The notes under the pieces were generated by a model that had not been told where the DNA came from, did not search any database, and saw only the letters and a program-made list of their open reading frames with translations. Positions 1,943 to 38,239 of a stretch of 39,130 nucleotides of DNA are shown one piece after another (position 1 is the first letter of the stretch; each line of letters starts with the position of its first letter). The stretch is from positions 1 through 39,130 of the IMG/VR virus record IMGVR_UViG_2563366972_000008; one strand, 5' to 3'. Source of the stretch: a virus. Taxonomy: Duplodnaviria > Heunggongvirae > Uroviricota > Caudoviricetes. The translations under genes were made by a program, and so were the position numbers.

Positions 1943-4900
1943 TCAACGAATACTGATGCCGGAAGCGGCTTTTTTGGTCACAATCACCGTACAGTCGGTG
2001 ATATTGCCTGCCCCCTGATTGCCTTTCTGGAAAATCTTAAACTCCAGAGTGACGCTTCCCCTGCCACTCGGCATATCAATAACTGCACTGTAACTACCGG
2101 GAATGGCCCCTTTAGTTTCTCTGGATGCGATTAATACGCCGTTTTTGCGAACTTCAAAACCATAACCCGTGTATCGCGTGCCTCCTGGGTTATTTCCGCT
2201 CCCCGGATCGTCATACGCTATACCGTTAAAAATAATGGGCGGAATAATAATCTGGCGGTCAAAGTTATGATCATCGCTGATGGTGACTGTAACCGTACCG
2301 TTTGGTGTTTCCGTGTTACCCCACGTACCGACTTTTTTCGGGAAGGCTTTTGATACAGCTTTAACGAAATCTCCTCTGACCTGGGTCGCCTCCAGCATGC
2401 CCTTAATCGTACAGTTCTGGTTAATCGTGACATTGTTGAGCGTTCCTGAGTTCGCATTCACACTGCCACTGATATCCGCATTTTTCGCCGTCAGTCTCCC
2501 GTCTGATGTCAGGGAAAATGCCGGAGGATTACCGCCGCTGGTAATGGTGGGGGCCGTCAGGCGTTTCAGGAACACTTCATTCATGAATATCTGATCGCCC
2601 TGACCAACAAACATCGGCTTTGTGTTGCCATTCGCAGGATTAATCATCGCAATCCTGTCTGCTGCCAGCAGCACCTGACTCTGCATGCCGTCAGGGGTGT
2701 TCTCAATACCGGCACCGATACCCGCAATATAAAGGCGTCCGTCCTGCATCTGCTGCAGCTTCACTGCCCACATGCTGTTCAGGTTATTATTTGTATCAAC
2801 CTGAACCTTCTGTATCTGCTGGATCGCTGCACTCTGGTCTTCCAGTTTCTTATTGACGGTCTGTGTTATTTCATTGCTGACATCCGTTATGGACGTCCTG
2901 ATTTCAGTCAGGTCAGGCGCAAGCTGACCGTTATCAATCTGCGTCCACAGCTCCTGAGCCAGATGGGTTTTCCCTATCTCGCCTTTGAAAAAATCCAGAT
3001 AGCCTGATGCATCATCACTCGGCTGACCGACAGCCTCCACGAATGCCGATTTGCCAACGGTGTTCACACTGCGAACGTAAAAATAATAATCATGGCCCGG
3101 TTTGATATTGATACTGGCGGCTATCCAGTACAGTGCCGTACCAAGATAACGCGCGCTGGTTTCAACCTGCCTGATATCCGCAATCCGTTTTTCCGAGAAC
3201 CAGAACTCAAACTGTACCGTCGGGTCATAAACCGCAAGATGCGGCGTGGCGGTTATCTGAAAATAGCCCGGTGTCAGCTCAATCCGAGACGGCGCTGCCG
3301 GTGCGGCAATCCGGAACGATACCGATGCCGGATCGCCCTGCTGTCCCCACGCATTTACCGCCCGGACTGTCAGCCTGTAGTTCCCCAACGCCAGTTGTGT
3401 GAAGCGGTATGTGGTTTCCGTCGTCCGGGCCGTGCTGACCAGCCGCTCACTGCCGTCGTCCGCTGTTACGGTCAGACGGAGCAGGAAGCTCACGCCCTTC
3501 ACCACCTTCGGTGTGTCCCAGCGCGCCAGCACCTGATATTCCCCGCTGTCTGCGGTGACTTCGGCAGTCAGGTGCTGCACCGCTGGCGGCGTGACACCAT
3601 TCACCGTGCCGCTCTGGTCGCCGTCAAAGTGCGCCCCGTTATCCACGATGGCCTCTTTTTCCGGCACATGCTGCACGGCAGTGATGGCATACGTGCCGTC
3701 GTCGTTCTCACGGATACTCACACAGCGGAACAGGCGCTGGCGCAACGTCGGCAACTTCAGCCCCCACACGCTGTATTCAGCAACGCCGTCAGGAACACGG
3801 CTCACTTTCACCTTCACGCCGTCGGTGACGGACTGGACCTCCACGCTGACCGGATTACCACCTCCGTCAACCAGGCTTATCAGCGTGGTGCCGGAGGATG
3901 GCAGCGTGATTTCACGGTCGAGCGTCAGCGTCCGGGTCTGGCTGTTCACCGCCAGCACGCGCCCGCCGGTGCTGATACCCGCATAGTCATCATCGCAGAT
4001 TTCAATGACATCCCCCGGTACATGGCGAAGCCCTTCCGCACCCACGCTGAAGTCCACGGTCTGCGTTTCCAGCAGTTCCGTTTTAATCAGCCACAGCCCG
4101 GCGCGGTGCGCCTGCCCCCGACTGGTACAGCCAAAGGCATCCATCTTCGTGACGTTACGACCGTAACGGGCAATGGCCTGCGTGTCCTCCACAAGCTCTG
4201 TCGCCGTCTCCCAGCCGTTATCCGGGTCAATCCAGTTCACCTCAACGGCATTATGGCGGTCCTTCAGGGCGCTGAAGCTGTAGCGGAACGGCGCGCCATC
4301 ATCCGGCATCACCACATTACTGCGGTTATAGGTCCACACCTTATCCGACGGTCGGTCCTGCACAAACGTCAGCGTCTGCCCGTTCCATACCGGCATACAG
4401 CGCATCGCCGAGCAGAAATCACTGAGCACATCCCACGCCTTACGCTGTGTGGTCAGGTACGCATTACAGGTGATGCGCGGCTCCGTGCCGCCAAAGCCGT
4501 CCGGCACTGACTGGTCGCAATTCTGGCCGATGACATACAGCGCCCATTTATCCACATCCGCCGCACCAAGACGTTTCCCCATGCCGTAGCGCGGATGGGT
4601 CAGCATATCCCACAGACACCAGGCCATGTTGTTGCTGTATGCCGGTTTAAACGTTCCGTCCCAGATACCGCTGTATTGCCGCGTCTGCGGGTTATAGTTC
4701 GACGGCACCTGCAGAATACGCCCGCGCAGATGATAATTACGGCTCACCTGCTGGCTGCCGAACTGCTCCGAATCCACCTGTACGCCGACCAGTGCCGTGT
4801 TCGGGTAGCACTGTTTCACATCGATGATTTCGGTGTATGACGACCAGAGCGTTTTGTTCTGCAGCTGGTCTGTGGTGCTGTCCGGCGTCATCCTGCGCAT

Positions 4901-15309: not shown

Positions 15310-15960
15310 TTAAAATTTAAGATTTTTCAGTGCATTCAGTGCGGCATCCACATCCTCAGCATCACGCAGGGATAAAGCGCCATATCCCCCGGCCATGAAT
15401 GCTTTGGCCTGGGTTCGCGAGAGTCCAACATCGCGCAGGACCCGCTCAATAATTTTCTGATCAGGGATCTCCCCACGCGCCAGCGCATTTTTCACATCGC
15501 TGATACGTGCCTCATCATTGCAAGGAAACGTCACCAGACTGACCTCCCACAGGTCGATCTCTTTCAGCAGGAATACCCCTTTTTCACGGTCGTACTCCCA
15601 GTCTTTCAGGATGTAGCCAATAGAAAGGCCGGTTAAAGAACCGGCCTTCATATGGGCATGTGCACGTTTTGCCAGGGGATCATCATCAACGAGTAATCGC
15701 CCCCTGACATAAAGCCCGACATCATCTTCTTTCATTTCGGTGTACACACCGATGGGCTCATCCATACGGTGCTGCCAGAGCAACGCAGGCAGCGCCTTTT
15801 TTTCGCTCCATTTCTGGAGTGTTGTGGTAAAGGCACCGGGGACCACCACATCATCGTGGCTGTCCTTAACACCAAAAACAGAACCGTAACCTTCAAATTC
15901 CCCGGAATCACTGACGGATTTCAGGTTCAGCGGTATATCAAGACGCTGTTTTGTCTGCAT
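15310..15960 (-). CDS. Prohead protease, HK97 family
   Basis: ORF between portal and capsid; AGGAGAG RBS before the ATG at 15960. Confidence 0.8.
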   Translation of the reverse strand: MQTKQRLDIPLNLKSVSDSGEFEGYGSVFGVKDSHDDVVVPGAFTTTLQKWSEKKALPALLWQHRMDEPIGVYTEMKEDDVGLYVRGRLLVDDDPLAKRAHAHMKAGSLTGLSIGYILKDWEYDREKGVFLLKEIDLWEVSLVTFPCNDEARISDVKNALARGEIPDQKIIERVLRDVGLSRTQAKAFMAGGYGALSLRDAEDVDAALNALKNLKF

Positions 15961-17179
15961 CTCCACTCTCCTTTTTCTTACCGTTGTCATCGCCAGCAGA
16001 GGGACTGGTGGTCATGTTCATCGGTGTCAGATACACATCACCGCCCGGGCGAGGATTCATATCCTCCAGATCACGGCAGTCATTAGGGGAATAAATCCCC
16101 CAGTTGATCCCCGTGGCATACGCTTCAAAGCGGGATTTCATGTCGCCACGCAACAATGCTCCGGCATTAAATTTGGCGTAAAACTTCCCCTGCTTGCTCT
16201 CCCTGACCAGCCCTGTATTGATCCGCTGTTCAATACGGGTCAGATACGGCACAAGGGAATAGTTAATGAAACCAAGCCCCAGCTCTTCAATATTGTTGAA
16301 GGTGGCGCGATCGGTGTTCTGCACCATATGCAGCGGCACGCGGAACAGGCGACAGATTTCTTCCAGCTGAAACTTGCGGGTTTCCAGGAACTGGCTGTCC
16401 TCGGCATTCAGTGCCACCGTTTTCCAGTCCAGCCCCATTTCCAGAATCATCGGACGATGAGAGTTTCCCAGCCCGACATGCCGTTCCTCAAAGTCCTTTT
16501 TGATACGCGCATAAGCCTGATCAGAAAGTTGTTGATCCGTACGCAACACACCGGATGTCACAGCGCCGTTACCAAACAGCCTGGCGCCGTGCTCCTCAGT
16601 TGCCGCTGCCAGTGAAATGGCCTCACGCGCATATGCAATGGGATTCAGCCCGACCAGCCCGTCCAGCGTCAGAGTACGCACATGCCAGATTTCATCCTGG
16701 GTCAGCACATCCACGGAACCATCCGGAAACGTCACCTGATAAACCGGCTGCCACTGACAGTTCAGCTTCGGCTCCACACAACCCGGATCTATCGGAAGAA
16801 GCTCCACCACTTCTCCCAGCGCCTTCACCTTGTAAGCGTAAAAATTACCCCGCAGACACAGGCAGACGATAACCAGCTCCCAGAATTCCTGCGGTGTCAT
16901 GTAGCCATTGGGTTTTGCCGAAATCAGCTTATGCAGTCGTTCATCCACCGCCCGTGTTTTAAGGGTGCCGGTGATTTTGTAGAGGCTGCAGGGCAGCATA
17001 CCAACAGACTCCGCCAGCACTCTGACGCAGGAATACACCGCCGTCAGCCGCATGGCCCGCTGACTGCTGATCCGCTTTCCGGTATAGGTGTCGTATGACA
17101 ATCCCAGCTCTTCCGCAAGCATCCCGGGTGTTGTAACGGGAGTGTTATTTTTGCGTTGAAAAAGCCCCTGGAAAAACAT
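15938..17179 (-). CDS. Portal protein, HK97 family
   Basis: 413-aa ORF directly downstream of the large terminase. Confidence 0.85.
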   Translation of the reverse strand: MFFQGLFQRKNNTPVTTPGMLAEELGLSYDTYTGKRISSQRAMRLTAVYSCVRVLAESVGMLPCSLYKITGTLKTRAVDERLHKLISAKPNGYMTPQEFWELVIVCLCLRGNFYAYKVKALGEVVELLPIDPGCVEPKLNCQWQPVYQVTFPDGSVDVLTQDEIWHVRTLTLDGLVGLNPIAYAREAISLAAATEEHGARLFGNGAVTSGVLRTDQQLSDQAYARIKKDFEERHVGLGNSHRPMILEMGLDWKTVALNAEDSQFLETRKFQLEEICRLFRVPLHMVQNTDRATFNNIEELGLGFINYSLVPYLTRIEQRINTGLVRESKQGKFYAKFNAGALLRGDMKSRFEAYATGINWGIYSPNDCRDLEDMNPRPGGDVYLTPMNMTTSPSAGDDNGKKKESGDADKTAS

Positions 17180-17372: not shown

Positions 17373-19130
17373 TTAAAGCGAGCGAATACCAACGCTGACC
17401 AGATGCTCAGACAGATCCGGCTCCGGTTCACCGCCATTGACCAGCATCCGGCTCATTGCTGTAAACATCGCAACAGGGCCGTCGATTTTGGCTTCCGGCG
17501 TGGATTTATTCGGGAAGATATTGTCGTTTTTGTCCGGTTTTACCGTAACGTTAGACATCATCCAGTTCATGACCGGATGATTGCTGTGGTGGAAACGTCC
17601 GGCATAAACCAGTGATTCCGTTTCCTTCATAGCCTCTGACAGATTGCGGACCGTCTGCGGAACTTCCACCAGCGGTATCCCTTCTTCAGCCAGCGCCAGA
17701 CTGAACTGCATTGCGCTCCACGGGTCAAATCCCAGTTCCCTGAGGTTTTCACCGCCAATCCATTCCAGTAAGTCACTTTTTATCTGAGCATGATCGATAA
17801 CATCACCATCCGTCAGGATGAGCTTCCCCATCTCTGCCCACTTCCGGTAAAGTTCTGCCTGCTGCCGTGAACACCGTTCCAGTCGCCCTTCCGGAAGCCA
17901 GAATTTAAAATCGGCATGAACATGCCCGTTATCCGTTCGCCAGAGTTTTGCCGCCGCACAGATATCAATCTTATGAGCAAGGTCGACGCCGACCCACATG
18001 GGATACGTTTTCAGCTCATGCTGTGGAGCGATGTATTCGCACTTCTCCCACTTAATCATGTCCATCCAGGCAGATTCGGCAGTGACCCACACATTCATGT
18101 GTTTGGTAAAAAAATTCACCCGCGCAGAAACCTGCTCCTTCGCCTTTTTCGCCAGACGACGCAGATCATCCCAGCGTTTACAGATGCCCAGGCCGGGATT
18201 CGCTTTCTGCCAGACCGTTTCATCAAACGGATCATCTCCCTCATCGAGGGTGTAAATAATCGCAAAGTAGGAGTCGTCTTTTACAGCGCCCTCCACATCG
18301 CTGTTATAGCCACGCAATACCTTGATGGCGTAATCACGCTGCTCGTAACAAATCCCTTCCTTGTTAAACCCTGCCGTGGTGATACCAAATAACAGGGACT
18401 GCAGGCGGGCACCGGTTGCCGTTTCCAGAACGTCCCACACGTCGCGGGTTTTATGTGCATGCAGCTCATCAATAATGGCGCAGTGGATGTTCAGACCATC
18501 CAGGTTGTTTGCATCCGAGGAAAGCGGTTCAAATTTTGATGCGCTCTGCTCCTGGTAAATCGCCAGCTTGTTGAAATCAAACAACCGCCCGAGTGTCGAC
18601 CGGGCTTTTCTGACCATATTTTTGGCGTCTTCAAACACAATTCTGGCCTGGTCACGCGTGGTGGCGGCTGAATACACCTCAGCACCGCCTTCACCATCTG
18701 CCCCCGTCATATACAGGCCGATACCCGATGACAGAGTTGATTTTGCGTTTTTACGGGCGACTTCGTTGTACGCCGTCCGGAACCGGCGCACCATCACCGG
18801 ACGTCCGCTGCCATCGCTGCGCATGACAACTTCCCCGGTCTCTTCATTCACCAGCGGAATGACAAAACCAAAAATATTAATGAGGATAAATACATGCCAG
18901 TCCATCAGTTCAATGGGCTGGCCTGCCAGCGCCCCTTTTACATGAGGCACAAATTTGTAGAAATTCAGGATGTGCTGCGCACGGGGTTCACTGAAATAAA
19001 TCCCCCGCTCTTCGCCGTACTTCAGATCATCAAGAAAACGCTGGCAGGCCAAGCGGACAAATTCGCCAGCAACAATTTCTCCTGCAACAACACGTTCGGC
19101 GTAGCGGATCCCGTCAGCCACTTTTGCCAT
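17373..19130 (-). CDS. Terminase large subunit
   Basis: 585-aa ORF following the small terminase subunit; ATPase and nuclease arrangement typical of TerL. Confidence 0.9.
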
Positions 19131-19612
19131 CAGTCTCTCGCTTTTAAAAGCTCCGCCAGCGGATCAACATCATCCGGTCCGGCGATATTTACTTTAGCCC
19201 GGCTTGCCGGTGACATACCAAACTCTGCAAGCATTGCCCGGATCCGCTTCCAGGCATCCGCTTTCATTGCCGCCGCGGGGTGCGCCTTAATCAGTACATC
19301 ACCGCTCTGCGTTTCCGTGCGGTAGGTATACCCCTCAACATCGAGTGTTTCGCAGTGATGCCGATATTCGGTGTAGGCTTCCACCAGCAACTCGAGCGCA
19401 CGCGCATCAAGCTGAGAAATGATCCCTTCCGCATTCAGCTCTTCCGCCATTCGCCTGAACCAGTACTTCCCCTGAGCCCCTAAATGCTGCGGAATTTTAG
19501 GAAGACCTTTTTCATCCTTTTTAGCGGTTTTTTTGTGGTCTTTAACGGGGCGCTTTGAGGGGTTGCCTCGAATCAAATGCAGGCGTGGCGGGGTTTTCGG
19601 AGGTCCTGACAT
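19130..19612 (-). CDS. Terminase small subunit (P27-like)
   Basis: 160-aa basic ORF directly upstream of and overlapping TerL, downstream of the HNH gene. Confidence 0.8.
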   Translation of the reverse strand: MSGPPKTPPRLHLIRGNPSKRPVKDHKKTAKKDEKGLPKIPQHLGAQGKYWFRRMAEELNAEGIISQLDARALELLVEAYTEYRHHCETLDVEGYTYRTETQSGDVLIKAHPAAAMKADAWKRIRAMLAEFGMSPASRAKVNIAGPDDVDPLAELLKARD

Positions 19613-22030: not shown

Positions 22031-22105
<75 letters not shown>

Positions 22106-22108
22106 ATA

Positions 22109-22184
<76 letters not shown>

Positions 22185-22186
22185 AC

Positions 22187-22263
22187 TGGACCGCCACCGG
22201 GGACTCGAACCTCGCACACTCAACTTAAAGGGTTGACGCTCTTTCCTGATGAGCTAGTGGCGG
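22187..22263 (-). tRNA. tRNA-like gene with noncanonical anticodon loop CCUUUAA (possibly Lys-UUU; C at position 33)
   Basis: Acceptor CCGCCAC/GTGGCGG, T-arm with TTCGAGT loop and encoded CCA; anticodon loop lacks the usual U33 and the T-stem has one mismatch. Confidence 0.55.
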
Positions 22264-22264
22264 T

Positions 22265-22340
22265 TGGTGGCCCTTGCTGGATTTGAACCAGCGACCTGGC
22301 GATTATGAGTCGCTCGCTCTCACCACTGAGCTAAAGGGCC
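22265..22340 (-). tRNA. tRNA with CAU anticodon, ileX/ileZ-like (Ile2 or Met)
   Basis: Acceptor GGCCCTT/AAGGGCC, anticodon loop CUCAUAA, TTCAAAT T-loop, CCA; resembles the Ile2 tRNA carried by lambdoid phages downstream of Q. Confidence 0.8.
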
Positions 22341-26732: not shown

Positions 26733-26885
26733 TTAACGTTTTTCAACTTCGTAGGCTAAATACGCTGAAAGCTCTGTGTTTCCCTGCCTGATGTGCAGCT
26801 CGCATAGCGAACCGCGAACCATCCAGACAAATATCAGAATGGTGATGCAAACCACCACCAGACAAAACACATAGCTCCTTCGCAT
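26733..26885 (-). CDS. hok: Hok/Gef-family type I toxin
   Basis: 50-aa ORF (absent from the ORF track) found by hand translation: MRRSYVFCLVVVCITILIFVWMVRGSLCELHIRQGNTELSAYLAYEVEKR; one TM helix plus the conserved LCE motif; AGGGGG RBS. Confidence 0.75.
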   Translation of the reverse strand: MRRSYVFCLVVVCITILIFVWMVRGSLCELHIRQGNTELSAYLAYEVEKR

Positions 26886-26943
26886 TACAGCCCCCTGTTA
26901 GTTGATTTCTTACTGTTAAGAGGCTAATCTTTATGTGTCGCAT
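26743..26943 (-). CDS. mok: mok-like overlapping reading frame
   Basis: 66-aa ORF overlapping hok in another frame and starting about 60 nt upstream, as in hok/mok/sok loci. Confidence 0.45.
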   Translation of the reverse strand: MRHIKISLLTVRNQLTGGCNAKELCVLSGGGLHHHSDICLDGSRFAMRAAHQAGKHRAFSVFSLRS

Positions 26944-27176
26944 ACAGAATGCCTCAGATTAATGTTAAGCGTCTTGCCGGACGCGTAATGTTAACTGGGG
27001 CTTTTCTCTATCTGCCGTTGGTGTTCATGCCCGAGGCAGATAGCCTCAAGCACCCGCAGCAATTCTACTTAACTCTCCTTTTCCCGCAAACCGTTTTTAT
27101 CCCCAGCGGCAAATCGAATACACCACCAGCGCCACCGCCATCGCAATTCCTACCGTTGTGAATGCTTCAGGCCAAG

Positions 27177-31640: not shown

Positions 31641-32030
31641 ATGGACATGAGAAAAAAGCAATACGACACCCCGCTAGCAGAAAGGTTAGATGCGATCTCT
31701 CAACAGCATCATTTAAGTGGTTCAGATTTAGCGCGTATCGCTGGTGTAGGTCGTTCATCAGTCAACGCATGGAAAAAAAGAGGAACAATCAGTAAAGATT
31801 CCGCAGCCAAAATTGCAGAAGCCACAAACGTTTCCCTTTCTTGGCTACTGACAGGGAAAGAAGAGACAAATAGAGAAGCGCTTGATGATGACGAGAAGGC
31901 CCTGCTTGATGTTTACAGAAACCTGCCACCCGTAGAACGTAGAAATATGCTGGCAGCTTTTCAAATGCGACTTCAAAAACTGACCGAATTTTACTCAGAA
32001 TACGTCGACCCAATAACACGACAAAAATAA
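31641..32030 (+). CDS. HTH_XRE repressor (DicA/CI-like)
   Basis: 129-aa ORF with HTH (LSGSDLARIAGVGRSSVNAWKK), divergent from cro-like gene, heading the ydfABC-dicB-like operon. Confidence 0.75.
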   Translation: MDMRKKQYDTPLAERLDAISQQHHLSGSDLARIAGVGRSSVNAWKKRGTISKDSAAKIAEATNVSLSWLLTGKEETNREALDDDEKALLDVYRNLPPVERRNMLAAFQMRLQKLTEFYSEYVDPITRQK

Positions 32031-32198
32031 TTCTTTATTTTACAGAATCATACCGCCGCAAGGCGGTTTTTTTTACCTTTTACGTATTCATTATGTTGAC
32101 TTTTGTTCACCTAGAGAGAACAATGTATTCCATCAAAGCACAACGGTGCGACAGGTCTTAGTTCCGCTACCCCGGCGTTAAGGGGAAATGAGGTCAAC

Positions 32199-32354
32199 AT
32201 GGATACTATCGATCTTGGCAACAACGAATCTCTGGTATACAGCGTGTTTCCCAACCAGGACGGCACATTCACCGCGATGACGTATACCAAAAGCAAAACG
32301 TTTAAAACCGAATCTGGCGCGCGTCGCTGGCTGGAAAGAAATTCAGGTGAGTGA
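32199..32354 (+). CDS. ydfA: YdfA-like small protein
   Basis: 51-aa ORF with GAGG RBS, found by hand translation; same length and operon position as Qin ydfA. Confidence 0.55.
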   Translation: MDTIDLGNNESLVYSVFPNQDGTFTAMTYTKSKTFKTESGARRWLERNSGE

Positions 32355-32355
32355 T

Positions 32356-32484
32356 ATGGATTTCGACACAATCATGAAAAAGGCTTACGAAGAATACTTC
32401 GAAAACCTCGCCGAAGGCGAAGAAACTCTCAGCTTCAGCGAATTTAAACAGGCGCTTTCCAGCTCGGCAAAATCTAACGGCTGA
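32356..32484 (+). CDS. ydfB: YdfB-like small protein
   Basis: 42-aa ORF starting 1 bp after the ydfA stop, GGTGAG RBS; same length and position as Qin ydfB. Confidence 0.5.
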   Translation: MDFDTIMKKAYEEYFENLAEGEETLSFSEFKQALSSSAKSNG

Positions 32485-32513
32485 TAAGCGAAGCAGCACC
32501 GCGAGGAATCAGT

Positions 32514-32732
32514 ATGCAGAAACGAGAACCCGTCATCATCGCGCCAGACTATACCGATGATGAACTTTATGAGTGGATGCGCCAGAAAATTAATGCAGCG
32601 CAGGATCTGAAATGGGCCAATGAAGCCAGGGCTAAGCAGGCTGAAAATCTGTCCGCTCTGGAGCAGGATATCACCAGGCTGGAAAAAGCAGCGGCATTAA
32701 GCATTGCCAGAATGATTACATACCCGCGTTAA
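32514..32732 (+). CDS. ydfC: YdfC-like protein
   Basis: 72-aa ORF with GAGGAA RBS; same length and position as Qin ydfC. Confidence 0.6.
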   Translation: MQKREPVIIAPDYTDDELYEWMRQKINAAQDLKWANEARAKQAENLSALEQDITRLEKAAALSIARMITYPR

Positions 32733-32867
32733 TAGCTAACCAACGAAGCTAAGGTTGGTAATTAAGGAGTTCTCCACGGGTGAGGTGGAGTGCGTGCGCC
32801 GGACACGGGTGAGCATCCGGTACGTTCTTTAAAAATCTGGATAGTCCCAACTTATTTAAACGGTTAA

Positions 32868-33299
32868 TTATCTTGAGTTCATCCAGAACTTATTATTGCA
32901 AGCGGGGCAAAAAGTACGAAAATGAGCATCAAAGCGCATTATTTCCATTGGCTGAAGTACAGATATTACCTTTTTTCCAAAACATTGTGGGCAAAGATGC
33001 ACAGTTATCTCAGTATCGCCTATAAATTGCTTCTTGGAATATACAAGGGTTCCAGAATCAAGCTTGTTAAGCTTGTAACCTTCCGCCTGTCGCTGAAAAT
33101 CTTCTGTCTCTGCAATTTTTGCTTTGAGATGCATTATCTCTTCATCACGAAAGCGGATCGCATCGCAAAGAGAGAAGCATTCCGCCTGAAGCGTGATTAG
33201 TTTGTTCTGAAGTTCAATAGTTGCGGCTTTAACTTCTGCATCCGTTTTTGCGTCATTAATAACCTTAGCGAGACCAGCTGTCTCCTTTATCGCAGCCAT
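32868..33299 (-). CDS. Hypothetical coiled-coil / C-terminal zinc-ribbon protein, reverse-oriented in the early-left operon
   Basis: 143 aa from ATG 33299 (MAAIKETAGLAKVINDAKTDAEV...); CPQC...CPAC pairs near the C-terminus; AT-rich; opposite strand to all neighbours. Confidence 0.55.
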   Translation of the reverse strand: MAAIKETAGLAKVINDAKTDAEVKAATIELQNKLITLQAECFSLCDAIRFRDEEIMHLKAKIAETEDFQRQAEGYKLNKLDSGTLVYSKKQFIGDTEITVHLCPQCFGKKVISVLQPMEIMRFDAHFRTFCPACNNKFWMNSR

Positions 33300-33629
33300 A
33301 GCCGCTGACAGTTCTGCTATCACGTTGAGTACTCTTCTCGTTGTTGGGGATATCCGGATTATACAAATTTCTTGTTGTTGGGGAATAACAGGAACCACCT
33401 CGCCTGACGTGGTTAAAAGCAGGCACACAACGCGAAAGCGTACGGCGAGGTAGCTGGTTTATAGATAGCCTGTCGTTAAATTTTCGTCGACCGTGCGCTT
33501 CCGGTTGTGGCACTCCGCGAAATGGCGCGGCGGTAAGTATGGCGGGGTTATTCCTTCCCCGTTGAGGACACCAGGTTGTCAGGTTGACCATACGCTTAAG
33601 TGACAACCCCGCTGCAACAACCCATGTTG

Positions 33630-33686
33630 ATTACCTTTTGGCGGGTATCCGTTTTTTGTTTTCCCTTGTGATACCCGCCCTTTTTA
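33630..33686 (+). ncRNA. dicF: DicF-like sRNA 3' module with intrinsic terminator
   Basis: Perfect 10-bp inverted repeat GGCGGGTATC (33640-33649) / GATACCCGCC (33670-33679) then CTTTTT, about 180 bp upstream of dicB; downstream tract AAAGTGAATTTTGTGATG recalled from the Qin dicF-dicB spacer. 5' end not determinable. Confidence 0.4.
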
Positions 33687-33868
33687 AAGTGAATTTTGTG
33701 ATGCGGTGAATGCGGCTCAGCGCACGCGGAACAGTTAAAAAGGCCAGTTGACTTCCGTATTGGTTCTTATGGGTGGGTTCTCTGTATCCGGCGTTAATTG
33801 TTAACTGGTTAACGTCACCTGGAGGCACCAGGCACCGCATCACAAAATTCATTGTTGAGGACGCGATA

Positions 33869-34057
33869 ATGGAAAAGTTATCATGCAATGCCAGTACGTC
33901 TGAACTTCGTTTCGAAATTGGCGTTATCACTGGAGACAAAACATTTATTGAAGACGCCATTAAGCAGAGAAAACTCGAGCATGACCTGTTAAATGAAGTA
34001 TGCATTCCTTCAATGCTGGCTCGTCTTGACCTGCTGCAAAAAGGATATAAACAATGA
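33869..34057 (+). CDS. dicB: Cell division inhibitor DicB
   Basis: 62-aa translation MEKLSCNASTSELRFEIGVITGDKTFIEDAIKQRKLEHDLLNEVCIPSMLARLDLLQKGYKQ resembles K-12 DicB as recalled; GAGGA RBS. Confidence 0.75.
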   Translation: MEKLSCNASTSELRFEIGVITGDKTFIEDAIKQRKLEHDLLNEVCIPSMLARLDLLQKGYKQ

Positions 34058-34245
34058 ATACAACATTTGCACTCGTTCTGACAGTTTATCTTGTTTCCGG
34101 CGAATCTCTTGAGCTGGTGACTGGCTTATACGGTTCAATGAAAGAATGCATGGCTGCCGCAGCAGAACAAAAAATTCCCGGTAACTGTTATCCGGTAGAT
34201 AAAGCTACTCACACTAATAATAACGAAATACCGGCAGGACTTTAA
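34054..34245 (+). CDS. ydfD: YdfD-like small membrane/lysis protein
   Basis: 63-aa ORF overlapping the dicB stop (ATGA); N-terminal hydrophobic helix; same length and position as Qin ydfD. Confidence 0.6.
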   Translation: MNTTFALVLTVYLVSGESLELVTGLYGSMKECMAAAAEQKIPGNCYPVDKATHTNNNEIPAGL

Positions 34246-34338
34246 AACAGCACCGTAATTAATATCCGGTTTTATTTTTATATGCCAGCAATGGCAGGGA
34301 TTTGTTCACCCTTAAATCTGTAATGAGGTTAAAACAAA

Positions 34339-36810
34339 ATGAGTAAAGTCTTTATTTGCGCCGCCATTCCGGACGAACAGGCAATAAAGGAAGAAGGTGC
34401 AGTCGCTGTAGCCACTGCCATTGAAGCCGGTGACGAACGCCGCGCCCGTGCCAAATTTACCTGGCAATTCCTGGAGCAATATCCGGCTGCTCAGGACTGC
34501 GCTTATAAATTTCTTGTCTGCGAGGATAAACCCGGCATGCCCCGCCCTGCTATCGACTCATGGGATACCGAATATATGCAGGAAAACCGCTGGGATGAAG
34601 AGTCAGCCTCTTTTGTCCCGGTCGAACCAGAATCCGATCCGATGAACGTCAATTTTGACAAGCTGTCCCCTGAAGTGCAGAACGCAGTCCTGGTTAAGTT
34701 CGGTACATGCGAAAACATCACCGTTGATATGGTGATTAGCGCACAGGAGTTACTGCAGGAAGACGTGGCGACATTCGACGGGCATATCGTTGAAGCACTG
34801 ATGAAAACACCAGAAATTAACGCTATGTATCCGGAACGCAAACTGTTCGCTATCGGATGGGTTAAACATAAATGTAAGCCTGGCGCAAAATGGCCGGACA
34901 TTCAGGCCGAATTACGTAACTGGAAAAAACGGCAGGACGCAGAGCGCAAAGAGACTGGAAAATACACGTCTGTTATTGATCTTGCCCGCGCCAAAGCCAA
35001 CCGACAGCACACTGAAAACCCGGCGGGAAAAATCCCCCCTGCCACTGCTGCCATTCGTCGTGAATACAAGCAGACATGGAAAACACTGGATGAAGAACTG
35101 GCCTACGCTCTCTGGCCTGGTGATATTGATGCCGGAAACATTGACGGCAGCATCCATCGCTGGGCAAAAAATGAAGTTATCGACAAGGATCGCGAAGACT
35201 GGAAGCGCATCTCCGCATCAATGCGCAAACAGCCTGATGCGCTTCGCTACAGCCGTCAGACGATTTTTGGTCTCGTTCGCGAACGTCCGATCGACATTCA
35301 CAAAGACCCTGTGGCACTGAACAAATACATTACTGAATACCTGACTACAAAGGGCGTGTTTGAAGATGAAGGAACAAATCAGAGCGCAACTGATACTCTC
35401 TCGTCGCCAGTACCAGAAACTGATGCAGTGGAAACGGCAATTCCGGACAACGAAAAAACCGAATGCAAAGTGGAAGTCGAACCATCTGTAGAGCGTGAGG
35501 GGCCGTTCTACTTCCTCTTCACCGACAAGGATGGCGAAAAATACGGTCGCGCAAACAAACTTTCTGGTCTGGATAAGGCGCTGGCTGCCGGGGCTACTGA
35601 AATCACGAAAGAAGAATATTTCTCCCGCAAAAACGGTACATACTCAGGTTCACAACAAAATACTGGTGCATCTGACACGACCGCACAACCAGAGCCGGTA
35701 AAAGTTACCGCTGAAGAAGTAAACAAAATTATGCAGGCAGCCAATATCAGCCAGCCTGACGCCGATGAACTGCTTGCAGTATCACGTGGTGAATTTGTTG
35801 CAGGGATTAGCGATCCGAATGATCCGAAATGGGTGAAGGGGATTGAAACCCGCGATTCTGTGAACCAGAACCAGCAAGAAACGGAACAGAACGACCAGAA
35901 AGCGGAACAAAACAGCCCAAATACGCAACAAAACGAGCCAGAAACGAAACAACCTGAACCAGTAGTGCAACAGGAACCGGAAAAGATCTGCACCGCCTGC
36001 GGTCAGAGCGGTGGCGGCAACTGCCCTGATTGTGGTGCGGTGATGGGTGACGCAACATACCAGGAAATATTCGATGGAGAGAATCAGCCTGAAGTTCAGG
36101 AAAATGATCCGGAGGAAATGGAAGGCACTGCGCATCAGCACAAGGAGAACACTGGCGGCAATCAGCATCATGCCAGCGATAGTGAAACTGGCGAGGCGTC
36201 AGATCCCTTAATTAAGGTGAACGGTCATCATAATCTCACATCCTCCAGCAGAGCGGGAATTCATCTGATGATCGACCTTGAAACCATGGGAAAAAATCCC
36301 GATGCCCCGATTATCTCAATAGGCGCAATATTTTTCGATCCGCAAACCGGAGATATGGGACCGGAATTTAGTAAGACTATCGATCTGGAAACTGCTGGCG
36401 GAGTCATTGATCGGGACACCATTAAATGGTGGCTTAAGCAATCACGCGAAGCGCAATCTGCCATTATGACCGATGAAATCCCGTTAGATGATGCACTGTT
36501 ACAATTGCGGGAATTTATCGACGAAAACTCCGGTGAATTTTTTGTTCAGGTCTGGGGAAATGGAGCCAACTTCGACAACACGATTTTGCGCCGTTCATAC
36601 GAACGGCAGGGGATCCCCTGCCCGTGGCGCTACTGCAACGATCGCGATATACGCACAATCGTTGAGCTGGGGAAAGCCATAGACTTCGATGCCAGAACTG
36701 CTATCCCATTCGAAGGTGAGCGCCATAATGCACTTGATGACGCTCGTTACCAGGCAAAATACGTTTCAGCTATCTGGCAAAAACTGATCCCGAGTCAGGC
36801 TGATTTTTAA
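34339..36810 (+). CDS. Large early protein with C-terminal DnaQ-like (DEDDh) 3'-5' exonuclease domain; full-length YdfE-like
   Basis: 823-aa ORF; C-terminal motifs MIDLETMG, WGNGANFD and HNALDDARY; acidic Q/E-rich linker with a CTAC...CPDC zinc-ribbon-like motif. Confidence 0.8.
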   Translation: MSKVFICAAIPDEQAIKEEGAVAVATAIEAGDERRARAKFTWQFLEQYPAAQDCAYKFLVCEDKPGMPRPAIDSWDTEYMQENRWDEESASFVPVEPESDPMNVNFDKLSPEVQNAVLVKFGTCENITVDMVISAQELLQEDVATFDGHIVEALMKTPEINAMYPERKLFAIGWVKHKCKPGAKWPDIQAELRNWKKRQDAERKETGKYTSVIDLARAKANRQHTENPAGKIPPATAAIRREYKQTWKTLDEELAYALWPGDIDAGNIDGSIHRWAKNEVIDKDREDWKRISASMRKQPDALRYSRQTIFGLVRERPIDIHKDPVALNKYITEYLTTKGVFEDEGTNQSATDTLSSPVPETDAVETAIPDNEKTECKVEVEPSVEREGPFYFLFTDKDGEKYGRANKLSGLDKALAAGATEITKEEYFSRKNGTYSGSQQNTGASDTTAQPEPVKVTAEEVNKIMQAANISQPDADELLAVSRGEFVAGISDPNDPKWVKGIETRDSVNQNQQETEQNDQKAEQNSPNTQQNEPETKQPEPVVQQEPEKICTACGQSGGGNCPDCGAVMGDATYQEIFDGENQPEVQENDPEEMEGTAHQHKENTGGNQHHASDSETGEASDPLIKVNGHHNLTSSSRAGIHLMIDLETMGKNPDAPIISIGAIFFDPQTGDMGPEFSKTIDLETAGGVIDRDTIKWWLKQSREAQSAIMTDEIPLDDALLQLREFIDENSGEFFVQVWGNGANFDNTILRRSYERQGIPCPWRYCNDRDIRTIVELGKAIDFDARTAIPFEGERHNALDDARYQAKYVSAIWQKLIPSQADF

Positions 36811-36868: not shown

Positions 36869-37072
36869 ATGAGCAGCTTATTTTTAACCGAAGATGAATT
36901 GCTAATATTAACGGGCTGCAAATATGCAAGCCACCAGCGAAAATGGTTAATGGAAAACGGGCTTCCGTTCTATACCAATCGTAGTGGCAAACCGATTGTC
37001 AGCCGGGATCTATTTACCTGCAATAAAACTTTACCACCACGCGAGGTAGAGCCGAATTTTGGTGCGATCTGA
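36869..37072 (+). CDS. xis: Excisionase (Xis)
   Basis: 67-aa ORF immediately upstream of and overlapping the integrase start. Confidence 0.7.
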   Translation: MSSLFLTEDELLILTGCKYASHQRKWLMENGLPFYTNRSGKPIVSRDLFTCNKTLPPREVEPNFGAI

Positions 37073-38097
37073 TGGGAAGACGAAGGAAAAATCCTGAACA
37101 CGAAAAATTACCTCCAAATGTATACCCAAATAAATATAGTTATGTATGGAAACCAACATCCAGAGAATCTGTCACACTAACCGCCATCAAGGATGGTTTA
37201 GCTGCTTTATGGAAAAAGTATGAGGAAACTGTAAATAATCGCGATCGTGCAATGACATTCGGTCGCTTGTGGGAAAAATTCCTCGCCAGCGCCTATTACA
37301 GTGACCTTAGTCCAAGAACACAAAAAGATTATCTGCAACATCAAAAAAAGTTGCTTGCCGTATTCGGTAAGGTACCAGCGGATTCCATAAAACCAGAACA
37401 CATCCGTCGATACATGGACAAAAGAGGGGAGCAGAGTAAAACGCAAGCCAACCATGAAAAAAGCAGTATGTCCCGTGTTTACAGTTGGGGGTATGAGCGA
37501 GGGTACGTGAAGGCTAACCCATGTGCAGGTGTAAGTAAATTCAAGGCCAAAAACCGCGAACGATATGTAACCGACAAAGAATACCAGGCAGTATTAAGCG
37601 TTGCACCTCTTCCTGTTTTTATCGCAATGGAAATTGCCTATCTGTGTGCAGCGAGGGTTTCCGATGTGTTATCGCTGAAATGGGAACAGATTGGAAACGA
37701 CGGGATATTCATCCAGCAAGGGAAAACCGGAAAAAAACAGATAAAAGCATGGAGTCCACGATTACAGGCAGCGATCGAAAAAGCAAAACAGTTACCAAAA
37801 TCTGCCTATGTGATCAGCAATCAATACGGCAACCGATATATGTACAAAGGCTTTAACGAAATGTGGGTAGAAGCAAGAAATCGTGCTGGAAAAATTTCAG
37901 GTATTTTAACCGACTTCACCTTTCATGATCTGAAGGCGAAAGGAATTTCAGACTATGAAGGAAGCAGCCGGGATAAGCAACTTTTCTCTGGTCACAAAAC
38001 CGAAGGGCAAGTGCTAATCTATGACAGGAAGGTTAAAATTTCACCAACACTTAATGTCCCGTTACCTGAAAATATTCCAAGAAAATATTCCAAGTAA
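37072..38097 (+). CDS. int: Tyrosine integrase
   Basis: 341-aa ORF with tyrosine-recombinase C-terminal catalytic region, 52 bp from a tRNA gene. Confidence 0.9.
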   Translation: MGRRRKNPEHEKLPPNVYPNKYSYVWKPTSRESVTLTAIKDGLAALWKKYEETVNNRDRAMTFGRLWEKFLASAYYSDLSPRTQKDYLQHQKKLLAVFGKVPADSIKPEHIRRYMDKRGEQSKTQANHEKSSMSRVYSWGYERGYVKANPCAGVSKFKAKNRERYVTDKEYQAVLSVAPLPVFIAMEIAYLCAARVSDVLSLKWEQIGNDGIFIQQGKTGKKQIKAWSPRLQAAIEKAKQLPKSAYVISNQYGNRYMYKGFNEMWVEARNRAGKISGILTDFTFHDLKAKGISDYEGSSRDKQLFSGHKTEGQVLIYDRKVKISPTLNVPLPENIPRKYSK

Positions 38098-38149: not shown

Positions 38150-38239
38150 TGGCGGAGAGAGGGGGATTTGAACCCCCGGTGGAGTTGCCCCCACTCCGGT
38201 TTTCGAGACCGGTCCGTTCAGCCGCTCCGGCATCTCTCC
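38150..38239 (-). tRNA. serU: tRNA-Ser (anticodon CGA), serU-like; probable attachment site
   Basis: 90-nt cloverleaf with long variable arm, anticodon loop CUCGAAA, acceptor GGAGAGA/TCTCTCC, encoded CCA. Confidence 0.85.

Follow-up and report, generated by a model that had tools for sequence, protein, structure and literature searches.

The stretch of DNA considered here, referred to below as the window, comprises positions 1–39,130 of the IMG/VR virus record IMGVR_UViG_2563366972_000008 (Caudoviricetes). Part of it is a dicB operon of the type found in the Qin prophage of Escherichia coli K-12, with a gene for a DicA-like helix-turn-helix (HTH) repressor, the genes ydfA, ydfB and ydfC (95% identical to Qin at the DNA level), an element at the position of dicF, and dicB itself, 3′ of which lie a ydfD-like gene, a gene for an 823-aa exonuclease and an integrase gene (Table 1). 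Between ydfC and the dicF-position element, upstream of dicB, lies a gene on the minus strand that faces this operon. We call it the rip1-like gene, and together with the conserved DNA upstream of it, which we call the cassette, it is the subject of this report.

Table 1. Features of the window; positions count from its first nucleotide
Feature	Position	Strand	Remarks
Portal gene	15938-17179		
terS	19130-19612		
4-tRNA cluster	22034-22340	minus	
hok/sok-type antitoxin RNA	26883-27055	minus	sok, 93.7 bits
DicA-like HTH repressor	31641-32030		
ydfC	32514-32732		
Segment holding the cargo gene and most of the expression cassette	32824-33414		591 bp, against 29 bp in K-12 Qin
rip1-like coding sequence (CDS)	32868-33323	minus	151 aa, GTG start, TAA stop; based on the list of open reading frames, family alignments, PGAP, homology and dN/dS
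Predicted sas-like antisense RNA region	33321-33440	plus	complementary to start codon, Shine-Dalgarno (SD) sequence, 5′ untranslated region (UTR) and promoter; ends in the core
SD-like GAGAAGAG	33332-33339	minus	8 nt upstream of the GTG, in repeat copy 2; position conserved in homologous cassettes
Direct repeat copy 2, TCCCCAACAACGAGAA	33335-33350	minus	in the predicted 5′ UTR; overlaps the SD
Putative -10, perfect TATAAT	33358-33363	minus	34 nt upstream of the start; aligns with the -10 of P22 P_sieB
Direct repeat copy 1	33369-33384		between the -35 and -10 positions; on the plus strand, loop of the covarying hairpin
Invariant 30-nt core, GCCTGCTTTTAACCACGTCAGGCGAGGTGG	33395-33424	minus	nested inverted repeats GCCTG/CAGGC and ACCAC/GTGGT; unique in the window
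dicF-position element	~33630-33690	plus	
Sub-threshold STnc100 match	33692-33846	plus	
dicB	33869-34057		NCBIfam DicB, 122 bits (cut-off 100)
Integrase gene	37072-38097		
Further tRNA	38153-38239	minus	

In the six-frame list of open reading frames (ORFs), the minus-strand frame ends at 32868 and is open as far as 33428. A preliminary description of this DNA, made from the letters alone, had started the ORF at the ATG at 33299 and given it 143 aa. The ORF exists and ends where that description placed it, but its length has to be corrected, as alignments with 19 and then 53 homologues map the conserved N-terminus, MIAELSAAM..., to a GTG 8 codons upstream, at 33323. The close homologues examined have a GTG at the matching start position, with the exception of one TTG, and PGAP annotates the same 456-nt CDS as a 'hypothetical protein' (WP_046788612.1) in the 98.7%-identical E. 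coli chromosome NZ_CP076272. Judged by sequence comparison, this is a real gene and not a chance ORF, since 101 homologues, each of them in Enterobacterales or a neighbouring genus, turn up in a database clustered at 90%, since a library clustered at 50% yields 2468 representatives at E ≤ 1e-3, and since dN/dS against 8 homologues is 0.12–0.26, which indicates purifying selection. The AlphaFold2 model made from a 54-sequence alignment (pLDDT 91.2) has helices at residues 2–24 and 28–80, followed by a small beta-rich domain that carries CPQC (111–114) and CPAC (139–142). Zinc binding by this domain is predicted, and all four cysteines are invariant in the 54 homologues. Thus, the helical or coiled-coil N-terminal half and the two CxxC pairs of the preliminary description are borne out, and so is its remark that the ORF is AT-rich, although the drop in GC content is modest (41.7% in the ORF, where the remaining operon has 46.2% and the window 51%).

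The protein belongs, over its full length, to the family of Rip1 ('ring interacting pore 1'), of which it is a divergent member. When the PDB was searched with hmmsearch, the profile built from 54 homologues found 9oox_L at E=5.1e-20 (residues 5–152), and the single sequence found 9oox with phmmer at E=6.1e-12 (residues 5–146). This entry is the cryo-EM structure of Rip1 of Escherichia phage HK446 bound to the small terminase of phage T6. BLASTP against gp30 of Pseudomonas phage JBD30 gave 28% identity over 145 aa (E=4e-19). The Foldseek comparison that had been proposed as a check also led to Rip1, as the AlphaFold2 model matched 9oox_M at E=8e-8 with probability 1.00 (TMq 0.64, TMt 0.74, rmsd 3.4 over 122 columns) and the runner-up had E=0.58. 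In PHROGs the protein belongs to phrog_1244 (1e-51), a family of unknown function, and scans against Pfam, NCBIfam and PADLOC-2023, the last of which has no model for the Rip1 family, returned nothing beyond sub-threshold coiled-coil and zinc-ribbon noise. The earlier statement that the protein matches no family is accordingly right for these three collections and wrong for PHROGs and the PDB.

When phage genomes were searched with tblastn, the family appeared at 27–31% identity in two groups, one formed by HK446, HK620, HK629 and HK630, where the gene is named hkaP, and one by Mu-like Pseudomonas phages such as JBD30, DMS3, MP38 and D3112. An alignment of 11 sequences (the window protein, HK446 Rip1, HK630 HkaP, JBD30 gp30 and 7 others) leaves C111, C114, C139 and C142 invariant, and likewise D28, L38, Q46, L66, Y83, V94, Y95 and L123. 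Within the subfamily of the window protein, conservation is uneven: the mean frequency of the top residue is 0.9 over residues 1–50 and 0.32 in the hypervariable loop between the two CxxC pairs. Two further IMG/VR alleles (L047 and L071) are nearly identical to the window gene in the C-terminal half (dS 0.10–0.15, dN about 0), while dS in the N-terminal half is about 1.8–2.0, and this difference indicates recombination between the putative effector (N-terminal) and sensor (C-terminal) halves. Both the hypervariable loop and the shuffling of halves fit a protein in which the sensor diversifies and the effector is conserved.

Rip1 was described by Patel et al. (2026, Nature 651:1060), and our account of it follows the part of a review that summarises their work (PMC13434031). 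As told there, Rip1 is a prophage-encoded single-protein defence that was first found between terS and terL of a P. aeruginosa prophage. The protein is anti-phage active but non-toxic when alone, and mutations that escape it lie in the portal in the case of Pseudomonas phages and, in that of E. coli phages, in the small terminase. Twelve Rip1 protomers encircle an 11-mer small-terminase ring, which they contact through the C-terminal half, whereas an amphipathic helix makes up the N-terminal part. The complex is pore-forming: it lets dye escape from liposomes and brings on premature lysis. According to the same summary, homologues are widespread in Proteobacteria and mainly prophage-borne, and the account is consistent in two other papers (PMC13601566; PMC12908700).

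At every locus that we examined, the family member stands alone and opposes a phage operon, and no conserved partner gene was seen. The reversed gene lies between N and ral/cIII in HK446, between N/HkaQ and cIII in HK630, between an N-like gene and cIII in Plesiomonas (beside a BstA-like gene), between cI and rdgC in Edwardsiella, between the repressor and a ydfD-like gene in Kosakonia, and between a ydfC-position gene and dicB in a second E. coli type. In JBD30, gp30 is reversed between terS, there a small 'DNA binding protein' gene, and terL, which fits the published setting. The sieB genes of lambda (34482–35036, opposite N and ral) and P22 have a matching position and orientation. The features of Rip1 that are found in the window are sequence, fold, motifs and the architecture of a single reversed gene in a prophage, and these, like the homology of the cassette set out below, are direct observations. 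Two other genes were noted near members of the family: a protein with a BstA_C domain adjoins the repressor in the Plesiomonas locus (L009, 7226–8152), and one with a SIR2_2 domain is encoded downstream of the replication genes in an E. coli locus (L006, 10655–11614).

The DNA upstream of the gene is conserved well beyond what the proteins would suggest. In the 130 nt upstream of the start at seven Rip1-family loci, about 105 nt are conserved even though the proteins share only 27% identity, and a nine-way alignment of the cassette has 46 invariant columns. In a blastn search of phage genomes this stretch matched 164 records, including lambda and the site annotated 'P sieB' in P22; the minus strand of 33324–33440 is 79–82% identical to P22 and lambda over 61–62 nt. 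The matching P22 region, upstream of sieB, is the complement of the sas RNA, found by RNA-seq to be 127 nt long (PMC13397905, Table 2), and the plus strand of the window at 33321–33440 is collinear with that RNA. In P22 this antisense RNA switches the translation of sieB from SieB to Esc and so frees P22 from its own exclusion (PMC12197685). From the homology of the cassette we conclude that the rip1-like gene stands behind a putative sieB-type promoter and that the opposite strand encodes a sas-like sequence. A scan for consensus promoters and terminators gave no minus-strand candidates close to the gene; the -10 came to light only through the alignment with P_sieB, as its poor -35 had kept it from being detected in the scan. 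No promoter for sas was located in either P22 or the window.

The cassette further contains a pair of 16-nt direct repeats with a spacing of 34, the copies of which are 94% identical. Across cassettes the two copies change in concert, as seen in CCCCAACAAC, CCCCTACAG, TTCCACAGTCAA and CCCCCACAA. On the plus strand, covariation supports a hairpin that holds copy 1 in its loop. Four of the five pairs of helix 1 have changes on both sides, 89.5% of the cells are paired (28–46% in slid controls), and 14 cells are G-U, where the other strand would have A-C mismatches, while the converse case is seen in 7. We infer that the loop of the antisense RNA, which is complementary to copy 1, may also recognise copy 2 beside the ribosome-binding site of the mRNA, as the paired change of the two repeats would be expected in that case.

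Because of the homology to Rip1 and because the gene stands alone facing an early-left operon, as rip1 of HK446 does, we consider it likely that the ORF encodes a divergent Rip1-family protein that is expressed from the prophage and acts on its own as an abortive-infection defence. Use of the promoter, the trigger, pore formation and antisense self-immunity would fit together as follows. In a lysogen, a sieB-type promoter of the gene's own would drive its transcription in opposition to the dicB operon, which is repressed there. Its product would be harmless until a superinfecting phage builds ring-shaped oligomers such as those of small terminase or portal, around which the C-terminal zinc-ribbon/beta domain would dock. 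The ring would then template a dodecamer-like collar, the N-terminal helices of which would form a membrane pore, and the cell would die or lyse before progeny are completed. The resident phage could set off the same response, since the window is a complete prophage with terS, terL and portal genes of its own. Once the early-left operon is derepressed, plus-strand transcription through the cassette would yield a sas-like antisense RNA, for which P22 sets the precedent, and this RNA would mask the ribosome-binding site of the rip1-like gene and spare the terminase and portal rings of the prophage itself.

Several observations weigh against this reading. The identity to the experimentally tested Rip1 proteins is only 27–28%, and trigger specificity and even activity may therefore differ. 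Residue 53 is a cysteine where more than 90% of the relatives have a glycine, and the C-terminus is at least 4 residues shorter than in the closest homologues. An amphipathic helix did not stand out in a test of the hydrophobic moment (maximum over 18 residues 0.34, compared with 0.44 ± 0.08 for shuffled sequences), although this test is crude and, as HK446 Rip1 and JBD30 gp30 were likewise unremarkable in it, tells us little. Finally, the -35 is weak (TTCCCC) without a match to the consensus, and the consensus scan detected no terminator near the gene.

Some of these points would also be expected if the gene were a true rip1 homologue that is inactive, as a decaying allele, or repurposed for another sensor target or another output. 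The low identity, the substitution of Gly53 at a near-invariant position and the short C-terminus all speak for such a loss or change, as do the intragenic recombination that has shuffled the two halves and the fact that Qin-type dicB regions are often cryptic. On the other hand, a 52-member cluster (P0001) has the allele with Cys53 as its representative, and the segment that carries it recurs at 98.6–98.7% DNA identity in at least 20 of the 59 carrier genomes described below, those listed at the top. The frame, the four cysteines, the -10 and the SD are intact, and the surrounding prophage looks complete. We regard an inactive or repurposed protein as unlikely, if clearly the most serious of the alternatives to an active defence.

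K-12 Qin lacks the segment that holds the gene. In blastn, positions 32160–32823 of the window match Qin (NC_000913) at 95% and 33415–34400 match at 83%, and where the window has 591 bp between these blocks Qin has 29 bp. The preliminary description had given this position as contiguous in Qin, and these lengths bear that out. It had offered two roles for the gene, that of a cargo gene and that of an antisense regulator of DicB and DicF. The first is supported by the insertion or deletion relative to Qin, by the presence of this allele in this context in 59 of 5426 complete E. coli genomes, and by the homology to a characterised prophage defence protein. The junction alignment shows that the 29 bp of Qin (L002, 3634–3662), between ydfC and dicF, are a decayed remnant of the cassette, CCCTGAAAAGTCAGACC, and because of this scar the 'contiguous' Qin arrangement looks like a deletion derivative rather than the ancestral state.

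As to the second role, transcription of the minus strand could interfere with, or be antisense to, the ydfABC-dicF-dicB transcript and so tune DicB and DicF. The gene does converge on ydfC and is antisense to any operon transcript that reads through, and as no terminator was detected past the stop codon, its own transcript could run antisense into ydfC. However, the selection acts on the protein: dN/dS is 0.12–0.26, the cysteines and other residues are invariant, and the fold is predicted with confidence. The same family occurs in the same reversed orientation in operons that lack dicB and dicF, such as those of HK446 and Plesiomonas, and other cargo genes fill the same slot in dicB operons, so that any effect on dicB would not be specific to this gene. 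In P22, moreover, the known antisense control runs the other way, from the operon strand onto the reversed gene. An RNA-level regulator is for these reasons improbable, and this part of the preliminary description is unsupported, although convergent transcription may have some effect on dicB and dicF.

The cassette and the reversed orientation are those of sieB in P22 and lambda, and one could ask if the gene is a functional analogue of SieB, that is, a membrane protein in the sieB slot. The proteins are unrelated (BLASTP against P22 SieB, E=0.54, which refutes homology), SieB is 184–193 aa long with an N-terminal half that is hydrophobic by eye, and the window protein has no hydrophobic transmembrane segment (maximum mean hydrophobicity over 19 residues 0.41) and an unambiguous homology to Rip1. 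A SieB-like membrane protein is thus very hard to credit here. What the two systems do share is a reversed, prophage-expressed gene in an early-left operon, about 100 nt of homologous upstream DNA that includes the annotated P_sieB and the sas-complementary region, and, if the function of the window gene is judged by homology, an abortive infection that acts late. Such a late phenotype stays compatible with a Rip1-type defence. A difference from sieB-esc is that the rip1-like gene has no visible Esc-like in-frame internal start with a ribosome-binding site. Last and least, identity as a DksA/TraR-like binder of the RNA-polymerase secondary channel is suggested by a superficial likeness in size (about 150 aa), helical N-terminal half and cysteine spacing, and by the occurrence of TraR-like genes in lambdoid phages, but it is effectively refuted and has next to no chance of being right, as zf-dskA_traR is unmatched in Pfam even at E ≤ 1, the modelled C-terminal domain is beta-rich and not the DksA globular domain, and the PDB profile search and Foldseek have Rip1 as their sole significant match.

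Among known systems, the Rip1 proteins HK446 gp37 and JBD30 gp30 are the closest to what we see in the window, in full-length homology, fold, the four-cysteine beta domain, the invariant residues, the position as a lone prophage gene reversed in a phage operon and size (151 compared with 164 aa); HK446 rip1 also has the same sieB-type cassette upstream. The window gene differs from both in belonging to a distinct enterobacterial subfamily (phrog_1244, with the MIAELSAAM N-terminus and GTG start) and in its place, which in an operon of the dicB/Qin type is flanked by ydfC and the dicF position, instead of N-cIII or terS-terL. The HkaP proteins of HK620, HK630 and HK629, the gene for which was an unnamed 'unknown' in the 2001 annotation of HK620, are likewise Rip1-family members (28–31% identity) with the same slot and cassette, from a different subfamily and in an N/HkaQ-cIII and not a ydfC-dicB context. 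A more distant comparison is RAZR (ring-activated zinc-finger RNase, PD-T7-4), in which a zinc finger assembles around phage rings formed by portal or recombinase (Zhang et al. 2026, PMC13017515). A variable zinc-finger domain sets specificity in RAZR, as the loop between the CxxC pairs may do in the window protein, and the logic would be analogous. The proteins are, however, non-homologous: RAZR carries its zinc finger at the N-terminus and a HEPN RNase effector at the C-terminus, and the effector of the window protein is probably a pore; PADLOC-2023, in which the presence of a PD-T7-4 model was not checked, left the window protein unmatched, and no HEPN domain was found.

The cassette is not confined to rip1-like genes. 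A degenerate pattern of the core matched at least 120 IMG/VR contigs, and among the matches listed the first ORF 3′ of the core is SieB-like in 14 cases, Rip1-like in 8 and something else in 75. These 97 ORFs fall into at least 36 unrelated clusters, mostly without a Pfam match. The cargo ORFs (60–190 aa; loci L017-L136, such as L024, L026, L055, L078 and L082) all lie reversed in early-left operons and include membrane proteins and small CPxCG zinc ribbons. In all 64 IMG/VR loci with recognisable neighbours, these neighbours are on the strand opposite to the cargo; one flank has DicB, YdfD, exonuclease, cIII or Ral, and the other has YdfA-C or N. The core itself occurs at 4373 places in 2767 of the 5426 complete E. 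coli genomes (51%), and no annotation of it was found at any of the 40 places listed, nor is there an Rfam family for it. We also saw a 136-aa cargo protein behind the same cassette (L066) with a coiled coil and a C-terminal zinc ribbon (MDVGLFISS...CPNC...CSFC), which does not score with Rip1 in BLASTP and may be a distant relative of Rip1 or a convergent design.

Two forms of the cassette can be told apart by the distance from CTTTT to the start codon. In the long form, to which the window belongs, it is about 96 nt, and in the short form (class B) about 62 nt. Class B has a single hairpin with many compensatory changes, a CA-rich loop, e.g., AGTTCTCACACAA, and a 3′ arm that abuts or overlaps the SD. 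When sense and antisense strands were folded and compared, the antisense strand came out ahead in 29 of 34 class B cassettes, a count that is confounded by GU-richness. In dicB-type operons with other cargo in the same slot, position 33390, shortly beyond the core, is in every case the last that is homologous to the window, and the other boundary varies. By these alignments the operon backbone meets the swappable cargo at the core, for which 0 chance matches are expected in the window.

What the core does may be answered in several ways, and a role as RNA structure, as promoter or as recombination linker was considered in each case on sequence grounds, with none favoured. Read by eye, the class B core could be a sigma-70 promoter (TTNACC, 16 nt, TGgTATNCT). 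A pseudoknot formed by GCCTG/CAGGC and ACCAC/GTGGT was a further candidate, but the stems almost never vary and covariation says little about them; the rare variants of the core are a mix of changes compatible with the sense strand, with the antisense strand and with neither. In Trabulsiella odontotermitis (L154, 1370–1500), a rip1-like gene keeps the promoter-like spacer and copy 2 without the core and copy 1, and the core is therefore dispensable for persistence of the gene.

We raise as a tentative suggestion, one that we think could well be wrong, that the cassette (33321–33440, about 105 nt) is a widespread, unannotated 'plug-in' of lambdoid prophages that expresses whatever abortive-infection or exclusion cargo is placed behind it and supplies a sas-type off-switch. 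The core, the locus-specific duplicated repeat and the covarying hairpin would then be parts of one module, and a sas-type RNA derived from the early-left transcript would silence the cargo once the resident or a related phage turns lytic, as a generic form of self-immunity. In the literature that could be searched we found no description of the cassette as a module with many cargoes, nor an earlier account of the core sequence or of a hotspot at the sieB locus, and a preprint on Pas small RNAs (sRNAs) does not include this element. If the suggestion is true, the module serves at least 36 unrelated cargo families, most of them of unknown function and the rip1-like gene among them, and the core is a practical marker for new small defence genes in half of the E. 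coli genomes.

Independently of that suggestion, a 'hypothetical protein' gains a specific and testable function, and the reach of Rip1 defence is extended to a distinct enterobacterial subfamily, to a dicB operon of the Qin/Rac type and, for this allele, to about 1% of complete E. coli genomes. The common promoter/antisense cassette links Rip1 to the 30-year-old sieB/sas system, and by analogy suggests a way in which a prophage might avoid triggering its defence with its own terminase or portal. The gene itself joins a known family, and we see the conserved sieB/sas-type cassette as the more novel lead. The core is also a cheap sequence handle, as dozens of uncharacterised small prophage-expressed proteins adjoin it.

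Some minor features of the prophage deserve mention. The flanks of the dicF-position element are conserved, and it contains a strong hairpin of terminator type, GGCGGGTATC...GATACCCGCC, followed by a U run (z=-4.3). K-12 DicF has a different body, and an Rfam match to DicF is absent even at E ≤ 1; it may, to judge from its sequence, be a DicF variant with a different seed. Just 5′ of dicB there is a sub-threshold Rfam match to STnc100 (33.7 bits, gathering score 47, E=4e-5), a family that a 2026 preprint links to PasD prophage sRNAs. The Rfam scan gave no match to DicF, AgvB or C4 RNA, and none in the cassette region. Elsewhere in the window lie four clustered tRNA genes as well as an antitoxin RNA of the hok/sok type (Table 1), and a further tRNA gene is found just beyond the integrase gene, where it is probably the attachment site.

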